This document shows, piece after piece, positions 3,654-16,352 of a stretch of 16,352 nucleotides of DNA. Each line of letters opens with the position of its first letter. Position 1 is the stretch's first letter. A program made the position numbers and the translations under genes. The DNA is from a virus (taxonomy: Duplodnaviria; Heunggongvirae; Uroviricota; Caudoviricetes): the IMG/VR virus record IMGVR_UViG_2603880150_000001. One strand, given 5' to 3'. Below the pieces are notes generated by a model. It had not been told where the DNA came from. It saw only the letters and a list, made by a program, of their open reading frames with translations, and searched no databases.

Positions 3654-4285
3654 ATCGGCGCACCCGTTGTCCCGCCGCTGTCGCCGGGGTGTTTATGGGT
3701 GTGGAGCACCTTGCCATTAGATGACAGCGACCCGCCTGTATGCTCGATGTTGCCTTTCATCGTTCCGCCCTTTTGCACCTCAAGCGTCGCTGTCGTCAGC
3801 TTGTTGGTGCAAATCACCTCGGGGGTGTCGAGGGTGATACTGGTTGAGGCTTTCACCAGTACCAGCGGCACGGTTGCGGTGATGGATCCCGATGCCGTCA
3901 CGTCGGCCGTTTTGATGCCGCTGACCGTCAGCGCACTGGTCTCGGGCTCGTACTCAATGACCGCACCATCAGGGAAAACCACATGCCACGCATCCGCCGA
4001 GGCAGAGGGGGCGGGGTTATCGTCGGAGAAAATTCCAGGCAGCACGAAAGCGGTATCAAGCTCGCCACCGATTGCCAGCAGCAGAACCTGCTCACCGACC
4101 GAGGGAGCCCACCACGTCCGCGAACGACCGGCGCGGGTGGTCAGCCAGTTCAGCCATGTAGTCTGGATCCCGCCGCTTTGTACGCGGCACAGCCCTTGCA
4201 CGGTATCAACCTCAGTCACCACACCTGAGCGGATGAGGTTGCGAATCGCGCGCGCGAGCTCCTGTATCGTGGATAACGTATTCAT
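3650..4285 (-). CDS. V: Baseplate spike/assembly protein gpV
   Basis: 211 aa, same length as P2 V. Start overlaps downstream W by 4 nt. Syntenic. Confidence 0.85.
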   Translation of the reverse strand: MNTLSTIQELARAIRNLIRSGVVTEVDTVQGLCRVQSGGIQTTWLNWLTTRAGRSRTWWAPSVGEQVLLLAIGGELDTAFVLPGIFSDDNPAPSASADAWHVVFPDGAVIEYEPETSALTVSGIKTADVTASGSITATVPLVLVKASTSITLDTPEVICTNKLTTATLEVQKGGTMKGNIEHTGGSLSSNGKVLHTHKHPGDSGGTTGAPI

Positions 4286-5784: not shown

Positions 5785-6278
5785 TCCATTACCCCGCCAG
5801 CGGTGCGCCATACGGTGACCAGTTTGTCGAGGCTGTGCTCACGTTGGCCGTAACCGGCACCCGGTAACGACGCCCAGATATTGCGGCACCTTGAAATTGC
5901 CTGCTCAATACGCCCCGCCTTAATATCCTCAATGGCACCGCGTTCGCGGATTAACTGAATCGCAAGTTTGTCCTGCGACAACGGGCTGAAATCAGGCAAT
6001 GCGAGTTGTTTCTGATAGTGCGGCCAGTAGAGATAAAGCTGCTGGTAACGCCCTGATGCCGTGGATTTTTCGCCGCGTCGATTAAACACTTTCGCTGGTC
6101 TGCCATGTGCGAAAGGGTGGTCGGTGTAGTCGGTGAAAATTTCCGGCTTGCCATCAAGGCCAGTGACAATGACGTCGTAACCACGATTTTTCGTCAGCGG
6201 ATGCGTCGCCGTCCCTTCGGAATAGGCCAGCATGTCCAGAAATGCGGCGATATTCTGGTGAGTATTAATGACCGGCAT
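5781..6278 (-). CDS. K: Endolysin gpK (lysozyme-like)
   Basis: Start at internal Met 'MPVINTHQNIAAFLDMLAYSEGT...', giving about 165 aa as in P2 K. Motif 'LAYSEGT' is typical of lambda R / P2 K type lysozymes. The 77-codon N-terminal extension in the raw ORF lies in another frame of holin Y and is not coding. Confidence 0.85.
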   Translation of the reverse strand: MPVINTHQNIAAFLDMLAYSEGTATHPLTKNRGYDVIVTGLDGKPEIFTDYTDHPFAHGRPAKVFNRRGEKSTASGRYQQLYLYWPHYQKQLALPDFSPLSQDKLAIQLIRERGAIEDIKAGRIEQAISRCRNIWASLPGAGYGQREHSLDKLVTVWRTAGGVME

Positions 6279-6561
6279 CGCTATCCCCCTGTTGTGACTT
6301 AAAGCGGCGCTGAATGGCGATTTCCACCACCTGATAACCTGCAATGCCGAGCATGGATCCAATCCCACAAACGGCAGGCAGTGACATATCTGGAAACTGC
6401 ACCAGAACAACACCGGCGACCATTGAAACAAAACCGCCGAGCAGCATGCGGCCGATAAACAGGCGCGGGGTAATGGGCTCACCGCCCGCCAGCACTTTTC
6501 CGACAACAATCATCACGCCAATCACAAACAGTGACAGGACGCCTTTTTCCCCTTCTGTCAT
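6265..6561 (-). CDS. Y: Holin gpY
   Basis: 98 aa with hydrophobic transmembrane segments and a charged C-terminus. Near-identical in pattern to P2 Y as recalled (LSLF.IGV.IVVGKVLAGGEPITPRLFIGRMLLGGFVSMVAGVVLVQFPD). Confidence 0.85.
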   Translation of the reverse strand: MTEGEKGVLSLFVIGVMIVVGKVLAGGEPITPRLFIGRMLLGGFVSMVAGVVLVQFPDMSLPAVCGIGSMLGIAGYQVVEIAIQRRFKSQQGDSDAGH

Positions 6562-7370: not shown

Positions 7371-8120
7371 TTAACCGGCGGTTTTTACCGCCTTTGGTGG
7401 ACGCCCGCGCTTTGCCGCCGGTTTGTTGGCAGGTTTGCGCGTGCGCGGTTTAGTCGTTTTACGGGATGCTGCCTCTGGCTTTGGCTTCAATGCGCGCTCC
7501 AGCCGCTCAATCTCTTTGCGCACACCGGCATTGCGGTCGAGCTGCATCGCGCGCTGAAACTGTGCCAGTGCTTCGGCGCTCTGACCGGCATCGCGCAGGG
7601 TCAGGCCTGTCACCTTATGCAGTCGAGCGCGCACCATATCGGGAACGTCAGCGCCGTCGGTCAGGCTAAGGGTGGTCAGCAGTAATGCGAGGTCGACAGG
7701 CTCACCGGCATCGCGCAGGCGCAGCGCGGCAAGCGCCACCTCCTCAACCAGCATGTAAGGTGTCGTGCGGCGATAGTCAGAGGTGAGGCCGTACTTCAGC
7801 GCGTATGGAGCAATTTCCAGCGCGCCAGCGATATCACCGGCATCGAGACGCCACAGCATGACTGTCATCAGAATGTCATCCTGCGCACCACGGCCATCAG
7901 CCAGCACACCGGCGACCCACGGCGCATAGAACGGCAGCAGCTCACGCTTTTTCGCGGCTTTCAGTTCGTTTGAACGGATGGTTTTCAATGTGCGGCGGTC
8001 ATCGGCCAGCTTTACCAGCATCTGCTCGTAGGCGGTTGCATGGCGCAGCGGGGCTTGTTCCCGCTGCGCGGCTTGAGAGGCCGAGACCCGCATCATGTGA
8101 CGCTGTGCGGGGCTCGTCAT
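7371..8120 (-). CDS. M: Terminase endonuclease (small) subunit gpM
   Basis: Start at internal Met (MTSPAQRHMMRVSASQ...) gives 249 aa (P2 M about 247 aa). Basic lysine/arginine/proline-rich C-terminus. Located 4 nt downstream of the N stop. Confidence 0.85.
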   Translation of the reverse strand: MTSPAQRHMMRVSASQAAQREQAPLRHATAYEQMLVKLADDRRTLKTIRSNELKAAKKRELLPFYAPWVAGVLADGRGAQDDILMTVMLWRLDAGDIAGALEIAPYALKYGLTSDYRRTTPYMLVEEVALAALRLRDAGEPVDLALLLTTLSLTDGADVPDMVRARLHKVTGLTLRDAGQSAEALAQFQRAMQLDRNAGVRKEIERLERALKPKPEAASRKTTKPRTRKPANKPAAKRGRPPKAVKTAG

Positions 8121-13144: not shown

Positions 13145-13369
13145 TTAGCCCTTAGACTTTTTAGGATCATCTTTTCTCTGATAAGTGCGTTCTTCCTGAA
13201 TTTTCCCATCTTCCTTGTGAATTTTGACCGAGCCTGTTTTGTTCGACATAAACTCAGATGTTGTTTTAATCAGCTCGGCCTTTGTGGGCGCGGTCTTGCT
13301 AGGGCGGTCATTGCCCTCTTTTTGCAACTTCCACTTATCGCCATCTTTTGTAATATGATAGTTATCCAT
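13145..13369 (-). CDS. Small DUF2188-like protein of unknown function
   Basis: Start at internal Met (MDNYHITKDGDKWKLQKEG...), preceded by a GGAGG ribosome-binding site. 74 aa with the pattern 'H...DG.W.vkkEG....s..f.TKaE.i....e.....g...IH..DGkIq....y...DP' that I recall for the DUF2188 family. Lysine-rich C-terminus. Confidence 0.55.
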   Translation of the reverse strand: MDNYHITKDGDKWKLQKEGNDRPSKTAPTKAELIKTTSEFMSNKTGSVKIHKEDGKIQEERTYQRKDDPKKSKG

Positions 13370-13573
13370 TAAAGCCTCCAACTGTTGTGGGGAACATAAA
13401 GTCTCAATATGGATATTAGCCAAAGCGAAACCGTAAAATTGTGCAACTGATCCCATCCTTTAGCACCACGCCACAGACGCACCACGCGCCCACGATCACA
13501 CCCGGCCACTACAGCGCCGTCACGACGTTCTCAGACGATAATTTTTAATAATACGCACCACCGCTGGCGCGCA

Positions 13574-13592
13574 ATGCTTTCCCCGCCACGCC
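13574..13592. other. Putative cos site (19-nt cohesive-end sequence, 186 type)
   Basis: The reverse complement of 13574-13592 reads GGCGTGGCGGGGAAAGCAT, which matches the cohesive-end sequence I recall for phage 186 (P2: GGCGAGGCGGGGAAAGCAC). Location downstream of portal gene Q is consistent with P2-family genome organisation. Sequence identity is from memory, not a search. Confidence 0.55.
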
Positions 13593-13737
13593 TGCCCGCT
13601 TTATGGGTCGGTTTTAATGCAGTTGCATGACCTCGCTTTAGCTAAGCTACTACCGGTACTCCTTATGTTTTGGCGGTTGGATCAACGCATGCAAAAAAAT
13701 GCAGTGGCATGCACACATTCATTACATCTTATTTATC

Positions 13738-14448
13738 TTATCGAACCCTTTTTTCCAGATTGAGTAGGGCTTTTTTGCATTTTTTTTGATTAATAAACGT
13801 TCTATCCAGTATCTTTATATGAAACATCATTACTCTATTGAAGCAAATAAACATTTCTCGGGCATCCTGGCCAACAATCAGAAACGACTCGCCATTAATA
13901 TTTGGAATGTTGCTATTCTTCGATAAATCATCAAATGCCTCAGAGCCACGTTCATTTCTATACATTTCTTTAATAGCCATTACTTCATCGTGGCGAACGA
14001 TATTAATCCAAATTAATTTATCTACAGTCAACAATTGCCCATACTCTAAGAAAAATACTCCCTTGGCTAACCAGGTGCCGTATTGGTAAATCTCCCTACC
14101 ATTTAGGGGTAATGTTATCTGCGCACCTTTTTTTGTATGCCTAACACTCTGGAATGCTTCACGAAATTTCGAGTCTTTTCTTTTAAGCGCATTATGGAAT
14201 TTATTAACAGCATCAAAGCTGCCTGTTGAGTGCTCTCCTACCATGCGGCAAATGACACCTAACACCTCGTCAATTCGGCTTTTATCGCCATTGCACTTTT
14301 TGCATACATAGAAATCACCTTCGCCGTTGGTTCTATGAATGGAGACTGAAACTTGCGGAATCATGTGTTCAACTGAGCGGCAGTGGGGGTGATTTTCAAC
14401 CTTATTCATGAGAACACCGCAATAAACGCAGTGTGTGCTTGGTTTCAT
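13738..14448 (-). CDS. HNH nuclease-domain protein with uncharacterised C-terminal domain (candidate accessory/defence gene)
   Basis: 236 aa from the Met with the best ribosome-binding site (AAGGG, 8-nt spacer); in-frame alternatives at 14454 and 14529. N-terminus carries a zinc-finger HNH signature: C-V-Y-C ... H-P-H-C ... V-E-H-M-I-P ... N ... C-K-K-C-N-G-D-K. C-terminal ~150 aa unrecognised. Gene is AT-rich (counted 60-nt samples 28% and 42% G+C, against ~60% in the terminase region). Confidence 0.6.
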   Translation of the reverse strand: MKPSTHCVYCGVLMNKVENHPHCRSVEHMIPQVSVSIHRTNGEGDFYVCKKCNGDKSRIDEVLGVICRMVGEHSTGSFDAVNKFHNALKRKDSKFREAFQSVRHTKKGAQITLPLNGREIYQYGTWLAKGVFFLEYGQLLTVDKLIWINIVRHDEVMAIKEMYRNERGSEAFDDLSKNSNIPNINGESFLIVGQDAREMFICFNRVMMFHIKILDRTFINQKKCKKALLNLEKRVR

Positions 14449-14544
14449 ATACATTGCCCTTACAATGTCTAATGACGAATGAGTAGCACTAAAATAACAC
14501 AAATCTGATGGTGGGATGTCAGCCCCCATGCTTTAGATTGGACA

Positions 14545-14574
14545 TACGAAAACCGGCTTTAATAGTGCCGGTTT
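14545..14574 (-). terminator. Rho-independent terminator (minus strand)
   Basis: Minus-strand RNA reads AAACCGGC-ACUAUUAAA-GCCGGUUUU: an 8-bp stem with a 9-nt loop followed by a U-run. Lies downstream of the small ORF and repeat copy A, and upstream of the HNH gene. Confidence 0.5.
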
Positions 14575-14595
14575 GGGCCAATCTCTACGGAACAG

Positions 14596-14666
14596 ACTAA
14601 CCCCTAGAGGGACTCGTTGTTCAACCCTCCAGTACCGAAAGCAAGTTTCAGCGCCGACGGCGTTCG
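14596..14666 (-). repeat. Repeat copy A (~70 nt) abutting the stop codon of the 69-aa ORF
   Basis: Aligns with 14999-15069 at roughly 80% identity. The core 'caaccc.ccag.ac.gaaagcaag.ttcagc.ccgacggcgtt.g' is shared. Minus-strand RNA can form a hairpin (12 of 14 pairs including G-U). Confidence 0.6.
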
Positions 14667-14876
14667 CTATCTTCGACATGGTGGTGGCGCATATTGTGTC
14701 GGCCTGCTGATATCGTTCAGCTTATCGTAGTTATCCCTGACTATTTCTGCACACCCGACCAATTCCGCTGGCGTCAGGTTCTCATTGACCATTATCGTCT
14801 GCAAGCGATGAACGATAGCCATCAGTTTTATGCTTTTAGTTTTGTGCTGCGGAATTTCGCCCGGTAGTCGATGCAT
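14667..14876 (-). CDS. Hypothetical small protein (69 aa)
   Basis: ORF with a GAGGG ribosome-binding site 9 nt upstream of the ATG. No recognisable motif. AT-rich cargo context. A second in-frame Met at codon 19 is an alternative start. Confidence 0.4.
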   Translation of the reverse strand: MHRLPGEIPQHKTKSIKLMAIVHRLQTIMVNENLTPAELVGCAEIVRDNYDKLNDISRPTQYAPPPCRR

Positions 14877-14998
14877 ATTATCGCCCTCAATGAATTTTAT
14901 TCAGTGCTGTCAAAGCGCCACTATAAAATCCTCTAAGGTAACGTCCCATTAATCACCGGTGTGTAACCAATAAAACATCGAGAAAGTTTGAAAGGTAG

Positions 14999-15069
14999 AA
15001 CTAACGCCTCTCGGAGCCAGTTTCAACCCCGCCAGCACTGAAAGCAAGATTCAGCACCGACGGCGTTTG
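14999..15069 (-). repeat. Repeat copy B (~70 nt) abutting the stop codon of the DinI-like gene
   Basis: Aligns with 14596-14666. Minus-strand RNA forms a 14-bp stem (CCGUCGGUGCUGAA / UUCAGUGCUGGCGG, 4 G-U pairs) with a 7-nt loop. On the plus strand the wobble pairs become A-C mismatches, so the fold is specific to the minus strand. Confidence 0.6.
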
Positions 15070-15303
15070 TTAATGCAGCCAGCTATCGTCCTCCCATACC
15101 TGCTGCATGATTTCCATTACTCGTTTTTTATCTTCGTCCAGTTTCAAACCGCTTAACTCAACGCCATTAGCTGAGCCCTTACGAATGCGGATAGCAGTCT
15201 TTGGGTAAATAGGTTGAAGATTGCGGTACAGCTCAGCCTCAAGTGCATCCAACGTTGCCTGACTAATTTTTTGCTCTTTATCCAACGTGATATTGATTCT
15301 CAT
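15070..15303 (-). CDS. DinI-like protein
   Basis: 77 aa. Alignable with E. coli DinI as recalled: 'MRI..T..K.......A.DAL..EL.R......P........R......LS........DK.R..EI.Q..WE....W'. Similar length (DinI 81 aa). Confidence 0.75.
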   Translation of the reverse strand: MRINITLDKEQKISQATLDALEAELYRNLQPIYPKTAIRIRKGSANGVELSGLKLDEDKKRVMEIMQQVWEDDSWLH

Positions 15304-15363
15304 AATCTAATCAGCCTTATAAAAATTATCATCTTCGGTTTCGTTATTTTCGCTGTTTGCTAG

Positions 15364-16352
<989 letters not shown>

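Follow-up and report, generated by a model that had tools for sequence, protein, structure and literature searches.

The 16,352-nt stretch of viral DNA that we analyzed (hereafter, the window) carries in its right part the right end of a 186/PSP3-type P2-family prophage. Read along the minus strand, on which all of the features described here are placed, the order is tumA interrupted by IS5, tumB (a DinI-family gene), one copy of a noncoding element (E_B), a gp37-like gene, a second copy of the element (E_A), a terminator resembling t95b of phage 186, a hotspot ORF and cos. The 3′ remnant of tumA (15307..15363) is cut by IS5 at the target CTAG (15360-15363), with the IS5 end GGAAGGTGCGAACAAG running from 15364; alleles of tumA without IS5 are present in the sister prophage L133 and in E. 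coli Ecol_545. The tumB gene (15070..15303) encodes a 77-aa homologue of PSP3 TumB (Pfam DinI, E = 7e-24) and is followed by E_B (14999..15070) and by a 122-nt spacer (14877..14998) that is conserved in PSP3-type relatives, on the minus strand of which we looked for promoter-like and terminator-like sites and found none. Between this spacer and E_A (14595..14667) sits a 69-aa gene of the gp37/orf92 family (14667..14876; phrog_11386, E = 2e-46; PSP3 gp37), whose product ends in PPPCRR and whose relatives also precede the element in Wphi, P2-EC67 and pro147. After E_A, both a terminator scan and an alignment identify an intrinsic terminator (14545..14574) that reads AACCGGC-loop-GCCGGTT and then TTTCGTAT; it is homologous to the annotated t95b of 186, with a weaker T-run, and the whole of 14664..14543 is homologous to 186 and to single-copy relatives. 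The variable hotspot segment of the prophage (13633..14544), over which the homology of relatives is lost from 14543 or 14597 to about 13632, contains a 263-aa ORF with an HNH-like motif (13738..14529; phrog_31193, weak PtuB/HNH matches). The cos core GGCGTGGCGGGGAAAGCA (13575..13592), together with a conserved block that extends to ~13632, forms the right-hand boundary of this hotspot.

A sequence-only reading of the window had described a ~70-nt element in two copies of about 80% identity, each starting within a few nucleotides of the stop codon of a different small gene, with a terminator after copy A only. This description was confirmed in each respect. A repeat search of the window picks out a 45-nt core (14625-14669 and 15028-15072; 84% identity), and the column identity of the two copies is 79% over about 110 nt (MAFFT). 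When a covariance model built from relatives was run on the 16.3-kb window, it returned exactly two matches, both on the minus strand, at 14999-15070 (62.2 bits, E = 8e-18) and 14595-14667 (60.1 bits, E = 4e-17), the next-best match scoring 10 bits. Both copies begin 2 nt after a stop codon: the DinI/tumB stop TAA (15072-15070) is followed by CA and then by the AAC of E_B (15067-15065), and the stop TAG of the 69-aa ORF (14669-14667) by CG and then by the AAC of E_A (14664-14662). The core of E_B runs from AAC at 15067 to TTAG at 15001 and comprises hairpin 1 (15067..15025), a single G (15024) and a 3′ module (15023..15001); that of E_A runs from AAC at 14664 to TTAG at 14597, with a partly degraded hairpin 1 (14664..14623) and a 3′ module (14621..14597). 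The hairpin and T-run at 14574-14545 follow E_A, and no terminator-like site follows E_B.

The same reading proposed that each copy folds into a long hairpin on the minus strand, that of copy B relying on G·U wobbles. For E_B this is borne out: folding yields -35.5 kcal/mol (z = -5.0) and four G·U pairs for the minus strand, but only -16.1 kcal/mol (z = -0.6) for the plus strand. For E_A the claim was too strong, as this copy alone folds no better than shuffles (z = -0.2); relative to the family it has four non-standard pairs and a 1-nt deletion in the 3′ arm of hairpin 1 and one altered pair in hairpin 2. Within the 3′ module, E_B has a 2-nt deletion and other changes from the family consensus, and E_A keeps GGUUGAACAACGAG intact with GCGAGGCG altered to UCUAGGGG. 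Both window copies, which score 60-62 bits against 70-89 bits for most relatives, may be partly decayed. We considered and rejected IS5 as the cause of this decay because the uninterrupted prophage L133 has the same low-scoring copies.

Across the family, the element is about 68 nt long and is arranged as AAC-[hairpin 1]-GUU-G-AAC-[irregular hairpin 2]-GUU-AG. Hairpin 1 has about 19 bp, a 5-nt loop and a conserved G·G mismatch, and hairpin 2 is short and irregular, with tandem G·A and an exposed GAGG. This two-part build, a covarying hairpin joined to a 3′ module of invariant sequence, had escaped the sequence-only reading. Hairpin 1 is maintained by compensatory substitution, with G·U tolerated on the sense strand only. 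In a set of 105 distinct element copies its sequence varies and its pairing is kept: 14 of the 19 pairs change on both sides, paired cells amount to 89.8% (30-49% in slid registers), and double changes number 331 compared to 94 ± 17 in shuffles, with 0 of 500 shuffles reaching 331. A lack of conserved pairing, which had been named as fatal to an RNA element, is thus not what the family shows. RNAalifold independently gives hairpin 1 and also pairs AAC (52-54) with GUU (74-76). In the sense orientation there are 185 G·U/U·G and 34 A·C/C·A combinations, which identifies the sense strand of the early/SOS operon as the folding strand; the sense strand also folds better in 90 of 101 copies (mean -28.6 vs -20.5 kcal/mol).

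These data support a strand-specific folded element and not a duplex DNA site. The earlier proposal of an RNA-level element rather than a DNA site therefore stands against duplex DNA, on both the compensatory changes and the excess of G·U over A·C, but not against every form of DNA, since DNA energy parameters favor the same sense strand and a folded single DNA strand is energetically feasible. Hairpin 2, for which the predicted fold is AAC..GUU-G-AAC..GUU, shows zero covariation because its bases do not vary. Likewise, an outer helix AACGYY/GGCGUU is compatible in 92% of cells and a loop-GCGAG pseudoknot in 82%, and neither shows covariation in the family alignment because their 3′ partners never vary.

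The 3′ half of the element is almost invariant, and it is as sequence that this module is conserved. In a sample chosen by DinI protein, and so independent of the motif, pairwise identity is 0.67 for hairpin 1, 0.87 for the 3′ module and 0.33 just past the element; the module is far more conserved than the synonymous sites of the adjacent gene (majority fraction at DinI third codon positions, 0.72). Directly after hairpin 1, all copies carry GGUUGAACAACGAG, an invariant, seed-like stretch that is predicted to be mostly unpaired. A role in ribosome binding would account for only about one third of contexts, and the module is equally conserved where no ORF lies downstream (186, PSP3, Wphi and this window). 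This invariance implies a binding partner. Unmasking of GAGG by a terminating ribosome was considered and rejected, as occluding the first 14 nt lowers its unpaired probability from 0.68 to 0.56 in copies with an adjacent ORF and from 0.46 to 0.44 in copies without one. No sites complementary to the invariant motif were found in the window.

The association with gene 3′ ends noted in the window extends to the family. The element follows DinI at all 79 usable loci (79/79), where the match to the model starts on the final nucleotide of the DinI stop codon; at 17 of the 79, a second copy lies about 405 nt downstream. More generally, a same-strand ORF ends -1 to +16 nt before AAC, most commonly by 1-2 nt, in 72 of 84 distinct upstream contexts. 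The last conserved gene upstream is DinI/TumB, gp37/orf92 or 186 orf97, with a gap of 1-2 nt and up to 16 nt. Some prophages have cargo upstream (Fic in L334; XRE+RT in Klebsiella VIM1phi7.1), and there the element is not the 3′ UTR of the adjacent gene. Directly downstream, the element is followed by a terminator, by the next gene or by variable cargo. In 186, RCIP0057, EtG, window copy A and many relatives, a hairpin and U-run that make up a terminator are found 22 nt past the element, and some lineages have a separate terminator 22 or 61 nt past it; most relatives have an ORF or unrelated DNA right after the element and no terminator. In 186, the element falls between the orf97 stop codon and t95b, the annotated terminator of the p95 transcript, and so lies inside a mapped mRNA. 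Two unrelated families, the 85-aa phrog_2100 family and a UmuD-like gene, begin 2-3 nt past ...GCGTTAG.

The element is common across enterobacterial P2/186-type phages, a breadth that the sequence-only reading missed. Of 5426 E. coli genomes, 341 have matches, at one place in the median case and at two at the most, and every context that we inspected, including plasmid-borne ones, is a P2-like prophage; among these contexts it is confined to enterobacterial P2-like prophages. These counts, with at most two places per E. coli genome, do not describe a known repetitive sequence, and on the same grounds (341/5426 genomes, maximum 2 places, prophages only) we rejected both a genome-wide repeat (REP/BIME, ERIC/IRU, box C or RSA) and a MITE. 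As to recurrence after other cargo genes, which the sequence-only reading had put forward as a check, the cargo carries no element of its own. With no genome holding more than two copies, this is not a multi-cassette system. Scanning genomes with a loosened pattern gave mostly chance matches outside Enterobacterales; these scored 20-36 bits with the model and were rejected. The element is absent from reference P2 and is therefore dispensable for the basic life cycle; it is also absent from phiCTX, HP1 and K139, and from P4, though the P4 hotspot shares some cargo with that of P2. PHB48 has a decayed copy that reflects an ordinary deletion and not precise excision. Rfam 15 gives no gathering-level match in the window, nothing over the element at E ≤ 10 in 14400-15400 and, for the consensus-like copies from 186, RCIP0057 and L052, nothing overlapping at E ≤ 1. 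The covariance search suggested by the sequence-only reading thus turned up no Rfam family, and our own model found the two window copies and recurrence throughout the family. Keyword searches of the literature covered gave no description of the element, and a text search of it gave no occurrence of GTTGAACAACGAG and found GCGAGGCGTTAG in five papers only (four on Anaplasma, one on Yersinia typing), which from their titles appear unrelated. The element is apparently undescribed and unannotated.

Judging from sequence comparison, the element adjoins the edge of the region in which P2/186-type phages swap anti-phage cargo genes. This region is the gpA-gpQ hotspot beside cos in P2-family phages, and the fast turnover of its cargo is an open question in the discussion of the paper that describes it (Rousset et al., 2022; PMC9122126). 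We found 93 distinct downstream contexts that diverge right after TTAG. Relatives lose homology to the window at 15000/15001, 14597 or 14543 and regain it at about 13632; the first two breakpoints coincide exactly with the 3′ ends of E_B and E_A, respectively, in keeping with the earlier suggestion of a cassette boundary. Single-copy relatives read DinI-E-terminator; a single spacer-gp37-E unit is exactly what separates them from the window. E_B and E_A bracket this unit, which is present or absent in otherwise collinear relatives.

What might such an element do? We put the probability at roughly 0.5 that the element acts within mRNA and doubles as a recombination anchor of the defense hotspot, a molecular function that we infer. 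Its carrier would be the rightward transcript of the early/SOS operon in P2/186-type phages of enterobacteria (Peduoviridae), on which it would act in cis. At the RNA level, hairpin 1 would form a barrier, or a structure for processing, at the 3′ end of the upstream message. It starts close enough to the stop codon for a ribosome to reach it, so that it may also damp translation upstream in the way of a REP hairpin. The 3′ module would present GAGG 8-9 nt before the start codon of a gene beginning 2-3 nt downstream, as a portable translation-initiation region, and a factor of some kind probably reads it as well. Finally, since the element is the only conserved noncoding island between variable segments, it may be the left-hand homology anchor for recombination that swaps the cos-adjacent defense hotspot.

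We regard it as unlikely that the element is instead the site of one-site, integron-like cargo capture, in which an enzyme of the phage or the host would recognize the folded strand and join foreign DNA exactly at the end of ...GTTAG, and the P2/186 defense hotspot would be an acquisition platform. Of equal standing is a reading in which the factor that reads the invariant 3′ module is an RNA-binding one, of host or phage origin, with a regulatory or anti-defense role. Unlikely, too, is a DNA-level recombination site, folded as single-stranded DNA in the manner of an integron attC or the hairpin site of an HUH enzyme, with cargo joined or excised at ...GTTAG and the RNA-like signals reflecting selection on the folded DNA strand. 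Such a site would fit the nucleotide-exact junctions at the element 3′ end in many relatives, the variable DNA on both sides, the flanking of the gp37 unit by two copies, AAC...GTT termini like those of attC core sites, and DNA folding that also favors the sense strand; moreover, the title of a 2004 paper by Nilsson et al. reportedly proposes site-specific recombination at this P2 locus. However, there are at most two copies per genome, cargo genes lack an element of their own, and no dedicated recombinase is linked to it. The bases outside AAC and GTT are not complementary in the RYYY/RRRY manner, and the favored strand is the coding strand, whereas attC uses the bottom strand. P4, which shares some hotspot cargo with P2, has no element, and the decayed copy of PHB48 is not a precise excision. 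Nor does the element resemble the P2/186 A-protein nick site, GCGCCTCGGAGTCCTGTCAATAAC, to a significant degree, and we rejected this candidate: the best local alignment is the 7-mer CGCCTCG, and 718 of 2000 shuffles do as well.

The remaining explanations are less probable again. It is doubtful that hairpin 1, the single-stranded seed GGUUGAACAACGAG and a t95b-type terminator make up a trans-acting small RNA that is released from the 3′ UTR of the SOS-operon mRNA and pairs with a conserved host or phage target. Although the seed-like stretch is invariant and mostly unpaired by prediction, the U-run terminator 22 nt past the element recurs in 186, RCIP0057, EtG, copy A and many relatives, and AACAAC resembles an Hfq (AAN)n site, what directly follows the element in most relatives is an ORF or unrelated DNA and not a terminator, copy B has no terminator and the window contains no complementary site. 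We find it very improbable that read-through into the cargo is controlled by a pause signal or by an RNA like HK022 put, which would modify RNA polymerase for processive antitermination: in 186, the annotated terminator of the p95 transcript (t95b) lies 22 nt downstream, and no Rfam family matches. The element is predicted to have two stem-loops with one unpaired nucleotide between them, and it lies upstream of terminators. Its GGCGTTAG, which agrees with the RfaH ops core GGCGGTAG in 7 of 8 positions, has T at the ops G5 position and lacks the downstream TG. Even less credible is a single-strand initiation site (lagging-strand origin) on the strand displaced in A-protein rolling-circle replication. 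A strand-specific hairpin some 0.5-1.5 kb from ori (itself within gene A), a DNA fold that favors the same strand and the annotation of P2 gene B as needed for lagging-strand synthesis are in line with such a site, but P2 and 186 replicate leftward from ori, which would displace the other strand. Moreover, the element is missing from reference P2, which replicates nonetheless, and from HP1, K139 and phiCTX (HP1 and K139 being annotated with an A-type nicking replication protein), and tight spacing to stop and start codons is not expected of an ssi site. Least probable of all is a neutral relic, a functionless duplicated 3′ flank carried along with small genes. The somewhat degenerate state of both window copies, the decayed copy in PHB48 and the lack of the element in P2 might suggest such a relic, but compensatory changes far beyond shuffled and slid controls, a 3′ module much more conserved than the synonymous sites next door, and an element after 79/79 sampled DinI genes all speak against it. 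The covariation and conservation statistics have effectively refuted this last explanation.

Both P2 and 186 are classic model phages, and their gpA-gpQ locus next to cos is now recognized as one of the main stores of anti-phage systems. The element, a noncoding module with sharp boundaries and under strong selection that lies exactly where the homology of relatives ends, is a concrete candidate for the left-hand recombination anchor, and its covariance model is a practical landmark for delimiting hotspots in contigs. It is also an apparently new structured RNA with unusually clean covariation. As the element lies in the 3′ region of the antirepressor operon under SOS control, it may have a bearing on how tight the control of prophage induction is.

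How does the element compare with known systems? Hairpin 1 is not an intrinsic terminator, since it is followed in all copies by GGUUGAACAACGAG and not directly by a U-run, and ARAGORN finds no tRNA or tmRNA gene in the window, which led us to reject a tRNA/tmRNA-like element. Like integron attC sites, the element is an imperfect palindrome directly after an ORF (of a cassette, for attC), conserved in structure above sequence, with AAC...GTT ends and exact junctions at its 3′ end. We rejected an attC assignment because the four bases that flank the invariant AAC and GTT are not complementary and are purine-rich on the 5′ side (ACAAAC, GCGAAC, AGAAAC), where attC has mutually complementary RYYYAAC and GTTRRRY; because there are no more than two copies per locus and none in the hotspot cargo, where attC sites form arrays; and because wobble asymmetry and folding energies favor the coding-sense strand. 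We saw no intI in the annotated regions inspected. HK022 put RNA consists of two stem-loops separated by one unpaired base and is, as we propose for the element, a cis-acting phage RNA of about 70 nt in an early operon, upstream of terminators. Unlike put, the element is at the end of its operon and not near the promoter, the terminator after it in 186 is annotated as functional, and the two have no sequence relation.

Close parallels for the proposed mRNA function are hairpins at gene 3′ ends. REP/BIME-type extragenic hairpins in this position stabilize mRNA, and a REP hairpin within about 15 nt of the stop codon reportedly damps translation (work attributed to Liang et al., 2015). The element shares with them a stable sense-strand hairpin a few nucleotides after the stop codon, with no U-tract; it differs in being longer, in having a conserved 3′ module and in residing always in P2-like prophages rather than genome-wide. 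The sib site of lambda, the RNase III retroregulator downstream of int, is likewise a long hairpin just past a dosage-sensitive gene, and the element could similarly govern decay of the upstream message, with the antirepressor/DinI in place of int; its stem, however, is about 19 bp and it is common to several unrelated upstream genes. At a sib-like site, RNase III cleaves within a duplex of about 20 bp.

For the proposed role in recombination, close parallels are the PeSLs (promoter-early stem-loops) of T4-type phages, reportedly described by Arbiol, Comeau and Krisch in 2010. PeSLs belong to another phage family, have no sequence relation to the element and occur in dozens of copies per genome as opposed to at most two, and the element has in addition a second, invariant module. 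The early promoter by which PeSLs are named also has no counterpart here, as no sigma-70-like promoter was found on the minus strand of 13400-15500 and TTGAAC-N17/19-(G)TTAGnn is, by inspection, a poor promoter match. Nevertheless, both are short, conserved, noncoding stem-loop modules that flank small variable ORFs in a hyperplastic region, with copies that would serve as homology patches for modular gene shuffling. As expected of PeSLs, the two copies in the window bracket gp37, and the breakpoints at 15000/15001 and 14597 are mosaic junctions.

The cos-proximal end of a 186/PSP3-type (Eganvirus) prophage of the P2 family makes up the right third of the window, with the early/SOS operon on the minus strand; Salmonella phages PSP3, SW9, SI22 and SEN1 match 14400-15365 at ~91% identity over tumA-tumB-gp37 (megablast). 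Read along the minus strand, an IS5 in tumA (end starting at 15364; CTAG target at 15360-15363) is followed by tumB (15303..15070; Pfam DinI), which the PSP3 annotation calls "similar to dinI and 3' end of 186 tum", and directly by copy B of the element (14999-15070). After a 122-nt spacer come a gp37/orf92-family gene (14876..14667; phrog_11386), copy A (14595-14667), a terminator (14574..14545), a 263-aa ORF (13738-14529) and cos (GGCGTGGCGGGGAAAGCA, 13592..13575), beyond which the portal gene lies on the opposite strand. This region is the gpA-gpQ locus, a hotspot of anti-phage systems beside cos (Rousset et al., 2022; PMC9122126). Its only cargo here is the 263-aa ORF (phrog_31193; 223 aa in the RefSeq version), which has no partner gene, carries a CxxC...EH...N...CxxC HNH-like motif and weakly matches Septu PtuB nucleases (E about 1e-4). 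Between cos and the portal gene stop, a DUF2188 ORF (13145-13456, minus strand) matches PDC-S16, a PADLOC candidate defence family (E=1e-14), and may represent a second small cargo slot across cos.

The repeat described in the sequence-only reading was confirmed, with 84% identity between the copies over a 45-nt core and 79% over ~110 aligned columns. A covariance model built from relatives places only two matches in the window (62.2 and 60.1 bits; the third-ranked scores 10 bits), and both copies begin 2 nt past a stop codon, in line with the few nucleotides given in that reading. Its statement that each copy folds into a long hairpin is firm for copy B only. Copy B folds in the strand-specific manner proposed (-35.5 kcal/mol on the minus strand, z=-5.0, vs -16.1 on the plus strand; four G·U pairs), whereas copy A, which the description fits only loosely, folds no better than shuffled sequences (z=-0.2) and departs from the family model in hairpin 1, the 5' stem, where four pairs are non-standard and the 3' arm has lost 1 nt, and in hairpin 2, where one pair is altered. 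The terminator expected after copy A is present and is homologous to t95b of phage 186. At 60-62 bits, both copies rank below most relatives, the bulk of which score 70-89 bits, with a few divergent copies at 49-68. Copy B combines an excellent hairpin with a 2-nt deletion in the invariant 3' module, while in copy A the hairpin is eroded and GCGAGGCG has become UCUAGGGG. Because a sister prophage without IS5 (L133) shows the same defects, IS5 is not their cause. A perfect G+C-rich 11-bp hairpin in the late-gene region (8043-8069, plus strand; GCGCAGCGGGG-CTTGT-CCCCGCTGCGC), a partial match to the model, is probably an intergenic terminator.

On the sense strand of the early operon, the stop codon is followed by 1-2 nt (up to 16), AAC, hairpin 1, GUU, G, AAC, hairpin 2, GUU and AG. 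Hairpin 1 comprises 19 paired positions closed by a ~5-nt loop; its sequence diverges widely among phages while pairing is retained. Across 105 distinct copies, both-sided changes occur at 14 of the 19 pairs, 89.8% of cells are standard pairs and double-sided changes number 331 vs 94±17 in column shuffles (0/500 reach 331), in an alignment that was fitted to the model and is hence biased toward structure; these compensations are also visible in the raw sequences. Sliding the hairpin-1 partner by 1-3 columns lowers pairing to 30-49%, and RNAalifold independently recovered the same helix. Wobbles are asymmetric, with G·U or U·G in 185 cells vs A·C or C·A in 34, and in 90/101 copies it is the sense strand that folds more stably. 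The fourth pair is a conserved G·G mismatch in 76/105.

The 3' half, GGUUGAACAACGAG-n3-5-GCGAGGCGUUAG, is almost invariant. In a sample of loci picked by DinI protein similarity, with the motif not used, its pairwise identity is 0.87, variable loop included, compared with 0.67 for hairpin 1 and 0.33 immediately downstream; the majority fraction at DinI third codon positions is 0.72. Modeling indicates that this half can form a short irregular hairpin (AAC/GUU, C-G, tandem G·A/A·G, GC/GC), and CTCGC variants have Watson-Crick pairs in place of the tandem mismatch. As the bases of hairpin 2 do not vary, no covariation support for it is possible. An alternative outer helix, AACGYY/GGCGUU, is sequence-compatible and, although unproven, would account for the G conserved in the G·G mismatch. 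A pseudoknot between loop and GCGAG is also possible, and equally unproven.

The element is found by blastn in ~50 Peduoviridae records from Escherichia, Salmonella, Klebsiella, Yersinia and Erwinia hosts. Phage 186 has a copy at 30341-30415, flanked by the orf97 stop codon and t95b; PSP3 has two, and Wphi, P2-EC58 and P2-EC67 are further carriers. No copy is present in reference P2, satellite P4, Pseudomonas phiCTX, Haemophilus HP1 or Vibrio K139. Matches occur in 341 of 5426 complete E. coli genomes, at no more than two places in each, and plasmid matches are P2-like prophages within IncC and other plasmids. A pattern scan of IMG/VR gave >120 loci with 98 distinct cores. Model-confirmed matches in the genome collection are all from Enterobacterales (Citrobacter, Enterobacter, Leclercia, Pantoea, Serratia, Trabulsiella and Tenebrionibacter); pattern matches outside the enterobacteria score only 20-36 bits under the model and were set aside as chance. 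All 79 usable loci of the DinI-selected sample have the element; the model match starts on the final base of the DinI stop codon, and 17 of the loci resemble the window in having a second copy ~405 nt downstream. A known RNA family was not recovered: neither the window copies nor consensus-like ones matched Rfam 15, and the GenBank/RefSeq entries for 186, PSP3, Wphi and E. coli Ecol_545 leave the site unannotated.

Of 84 distinct upstream contexts, 72 have an ORF (40 codons or more, on the same strand) whose end falls -1 to +16 nt before the AAC, the distance being 1-2 nt in 45 contexts and 7 nt in 12. The upstream genes belong to the DinI/TumB, gp37/orf92, 186 orf97 and phrog_698 families, with a few other C-termini; outside the 72 is Klebsiella phage VIM1phi7.1, whose reverse transcriptase ends ~70 nt upstream. 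Downstream, all 93 distinct contexts diverge from the first base past TTAG. What follows is a terminator (t95b-type at +22 or another type at +61), an ORF starting at +2/+3 (the 85-aa phrog_2100 family or a UmuD-like gene), for which the GAGG of the element sits 8-9 nt before the start codon, or unrelated DNA, convergent genes included. In many relatives outside E. coli, such as IMG/VR loci L052:7603-7860, L029 and L131, a gene of the uncharacterised phrog_2100 family (85-88 aa; MGSKDSNYQVVYRG...GGGFWLG...) starts 2-3 nt past the element, as does a UmuD-like 107-aa gene in L021 and L058. Cargo can also lie upstream: a reverse-oriented Fic gene (Salmonella Newport plasmid p20723-1, L334, 2892-4070) or an XRE gene plus reverse transcriptase (Klebsiella phage ST147-VIM1phi7.1, L010, 475-2047) sits between early operon and element, so variable DNA is possible on either side. 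Also seen in this pair of loci is a convergent 143-aa gene that ends within the ...GTTAG of the element. One IMG/VR contig (L084) has two opposite copies, 3858-3931 (minus) and 6236-6309 (plus), one of them following a truncated 24-codon DinI remnant, which suggests a rearranged or tandem prophage.

Mosaic junctions were read from alignments of the window minus strand with 89 related loci. Homology to fifteen two-copy relatives runs from 15364 down to 14596/14597, the last base of copy A, and to one more stops at 14613; in each of them it resumes only at ~13632-13637, next to cos. Two other two-copy loci, L133 and L141, match over the whole stretch. Homology to single-copy relatives ends at 14999-15001, the last bases of copy B, and several carry on with the copy A-plus-terminator flank (14664..14543); their order is therefore DinI-element-terminator-cos, one spacer-gp37-element unit fewer than the window. 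The earlier suggestion of a cassette boundary gains from these alignments, as the 3' end of the element coincides with recombination junctions among relatives. A sharp boundary also marks the right side of the variable segment (~13632-13637, 40-45 nt before cos); the hexamer GCGAGG shared by the 3' module and AAGCGAGGTCATGCAACTGCATT (13593-13640, minus strand) is probably a chance likeness. In PSP3-like phages the B-type copies are orthologues of one another, and so are the A-type copies, as with the common CTCGC variant after DinI; the duplication is therefore old. Salmonella phage PHB48 (1470-1580) has a decayed copy between orf97-like and gp37-like genes, in which a 28-nt deletion has taken out the 5' arm of hairpin 1 together with its loop and the motif carries mutations, and an intact copy after gp37, suggesting that an operon needs just one intact copy.

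The IS5 (15360-16352) lies at a CTAG target within tumA, the antirepressor part of the PSP3 type, with its end GGAAGGTGCGAACAAG starting at 15364 and its transposase ORF running from 15433 on the plus strand; IMG/VR locus L133 and E. coli Ecol_545 both have the allele without it. The insertion parts tumB-element-gp37-element from the 5' part of tumA. By analogy with 186 p95, it would separate these genes from a LexA-controlled promoter, and it probably uncouples tumB-gp37 from the SOS promoter. The element in this strain may have lost expression from its normal promoter, and the prophage may be non-inducible owing to IS5.

The element is strand-specific, structurally constrained, under purifying selection and tied to the end of the rightward early/SOS operon. 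We infer that it is a cis-acting RNA element, because the 186 copy falls within the mapped p95 transcript, ahead of t95b, G·U is tolerated and A·C is not, and spacing to stop and start codons is tight; we put the probability that it is a functional structured RNA at roughly 0.8. It is possible that the folded molecule is instead a DNA strand, with a site-specific recombination mechanism, as DNA energy parameters favor the sense strand too. An attC-like cassette system is difficult to reconcile with a maximum of two copies and cargo genes without the element; the core boxes are not complementary, the strand is the wrong one and no recombinase is linked to the element. A lagging-strand origin is at odds with its absence from reference P2, phiCTX, HP1 and K139, the last two annotated with an A-type nicking replication protein, and a put-like antiterminator with the annotation of the terminator after the 186 element as functional. 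Most copies have no terminator after them, which argues against a small RNA as a general answer.

If the element acts in cis as RNA, hairpin 1 would serve the tum/dinI message as a 3'-end barrier or processing structure. REP hairpins near stop codons are reported to limit upstream translation, and hairpin 1 may do the same, since it begins within reach of the terminating ribosome. The 3' module would provide a ready-made ribosome-binding region for any gene 2-3 nt downstream, but such use covers only ~1/3 of contexts and the module is equally conserved with nothing after it; folding calculations gave no support for unmasking of GAGG by an upstream ribosome. In the genome, the 68-bp island, above all its invariant 30 bp, would be the natural left-hand homology patch for exchange of the cos-adjacent hotspot, which fits the two-event model speculated on by Rousset et al. 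(PMC9122126). That the element is both a cis-acting RNA and a hotspot recombination anchor we regard as an even bet.

We consider the element a new, well-supported structured RNA family tied to a topical locus, the anti-phage hotspot of P2-type phages. We found no description of it in Rfam, database annotations or the literature searched, a search outside which the most relevant older papers fall. The PeSLs of T4-type phages are stem-loop regulatory cassettes that flank and shuffle small ORFs. In its working, the element is closest to these PeSLs and to REP-type 3' hairpins, but it belongs to neither, as it has no promoter, is not dispersed and has a two-part architecture of its own.
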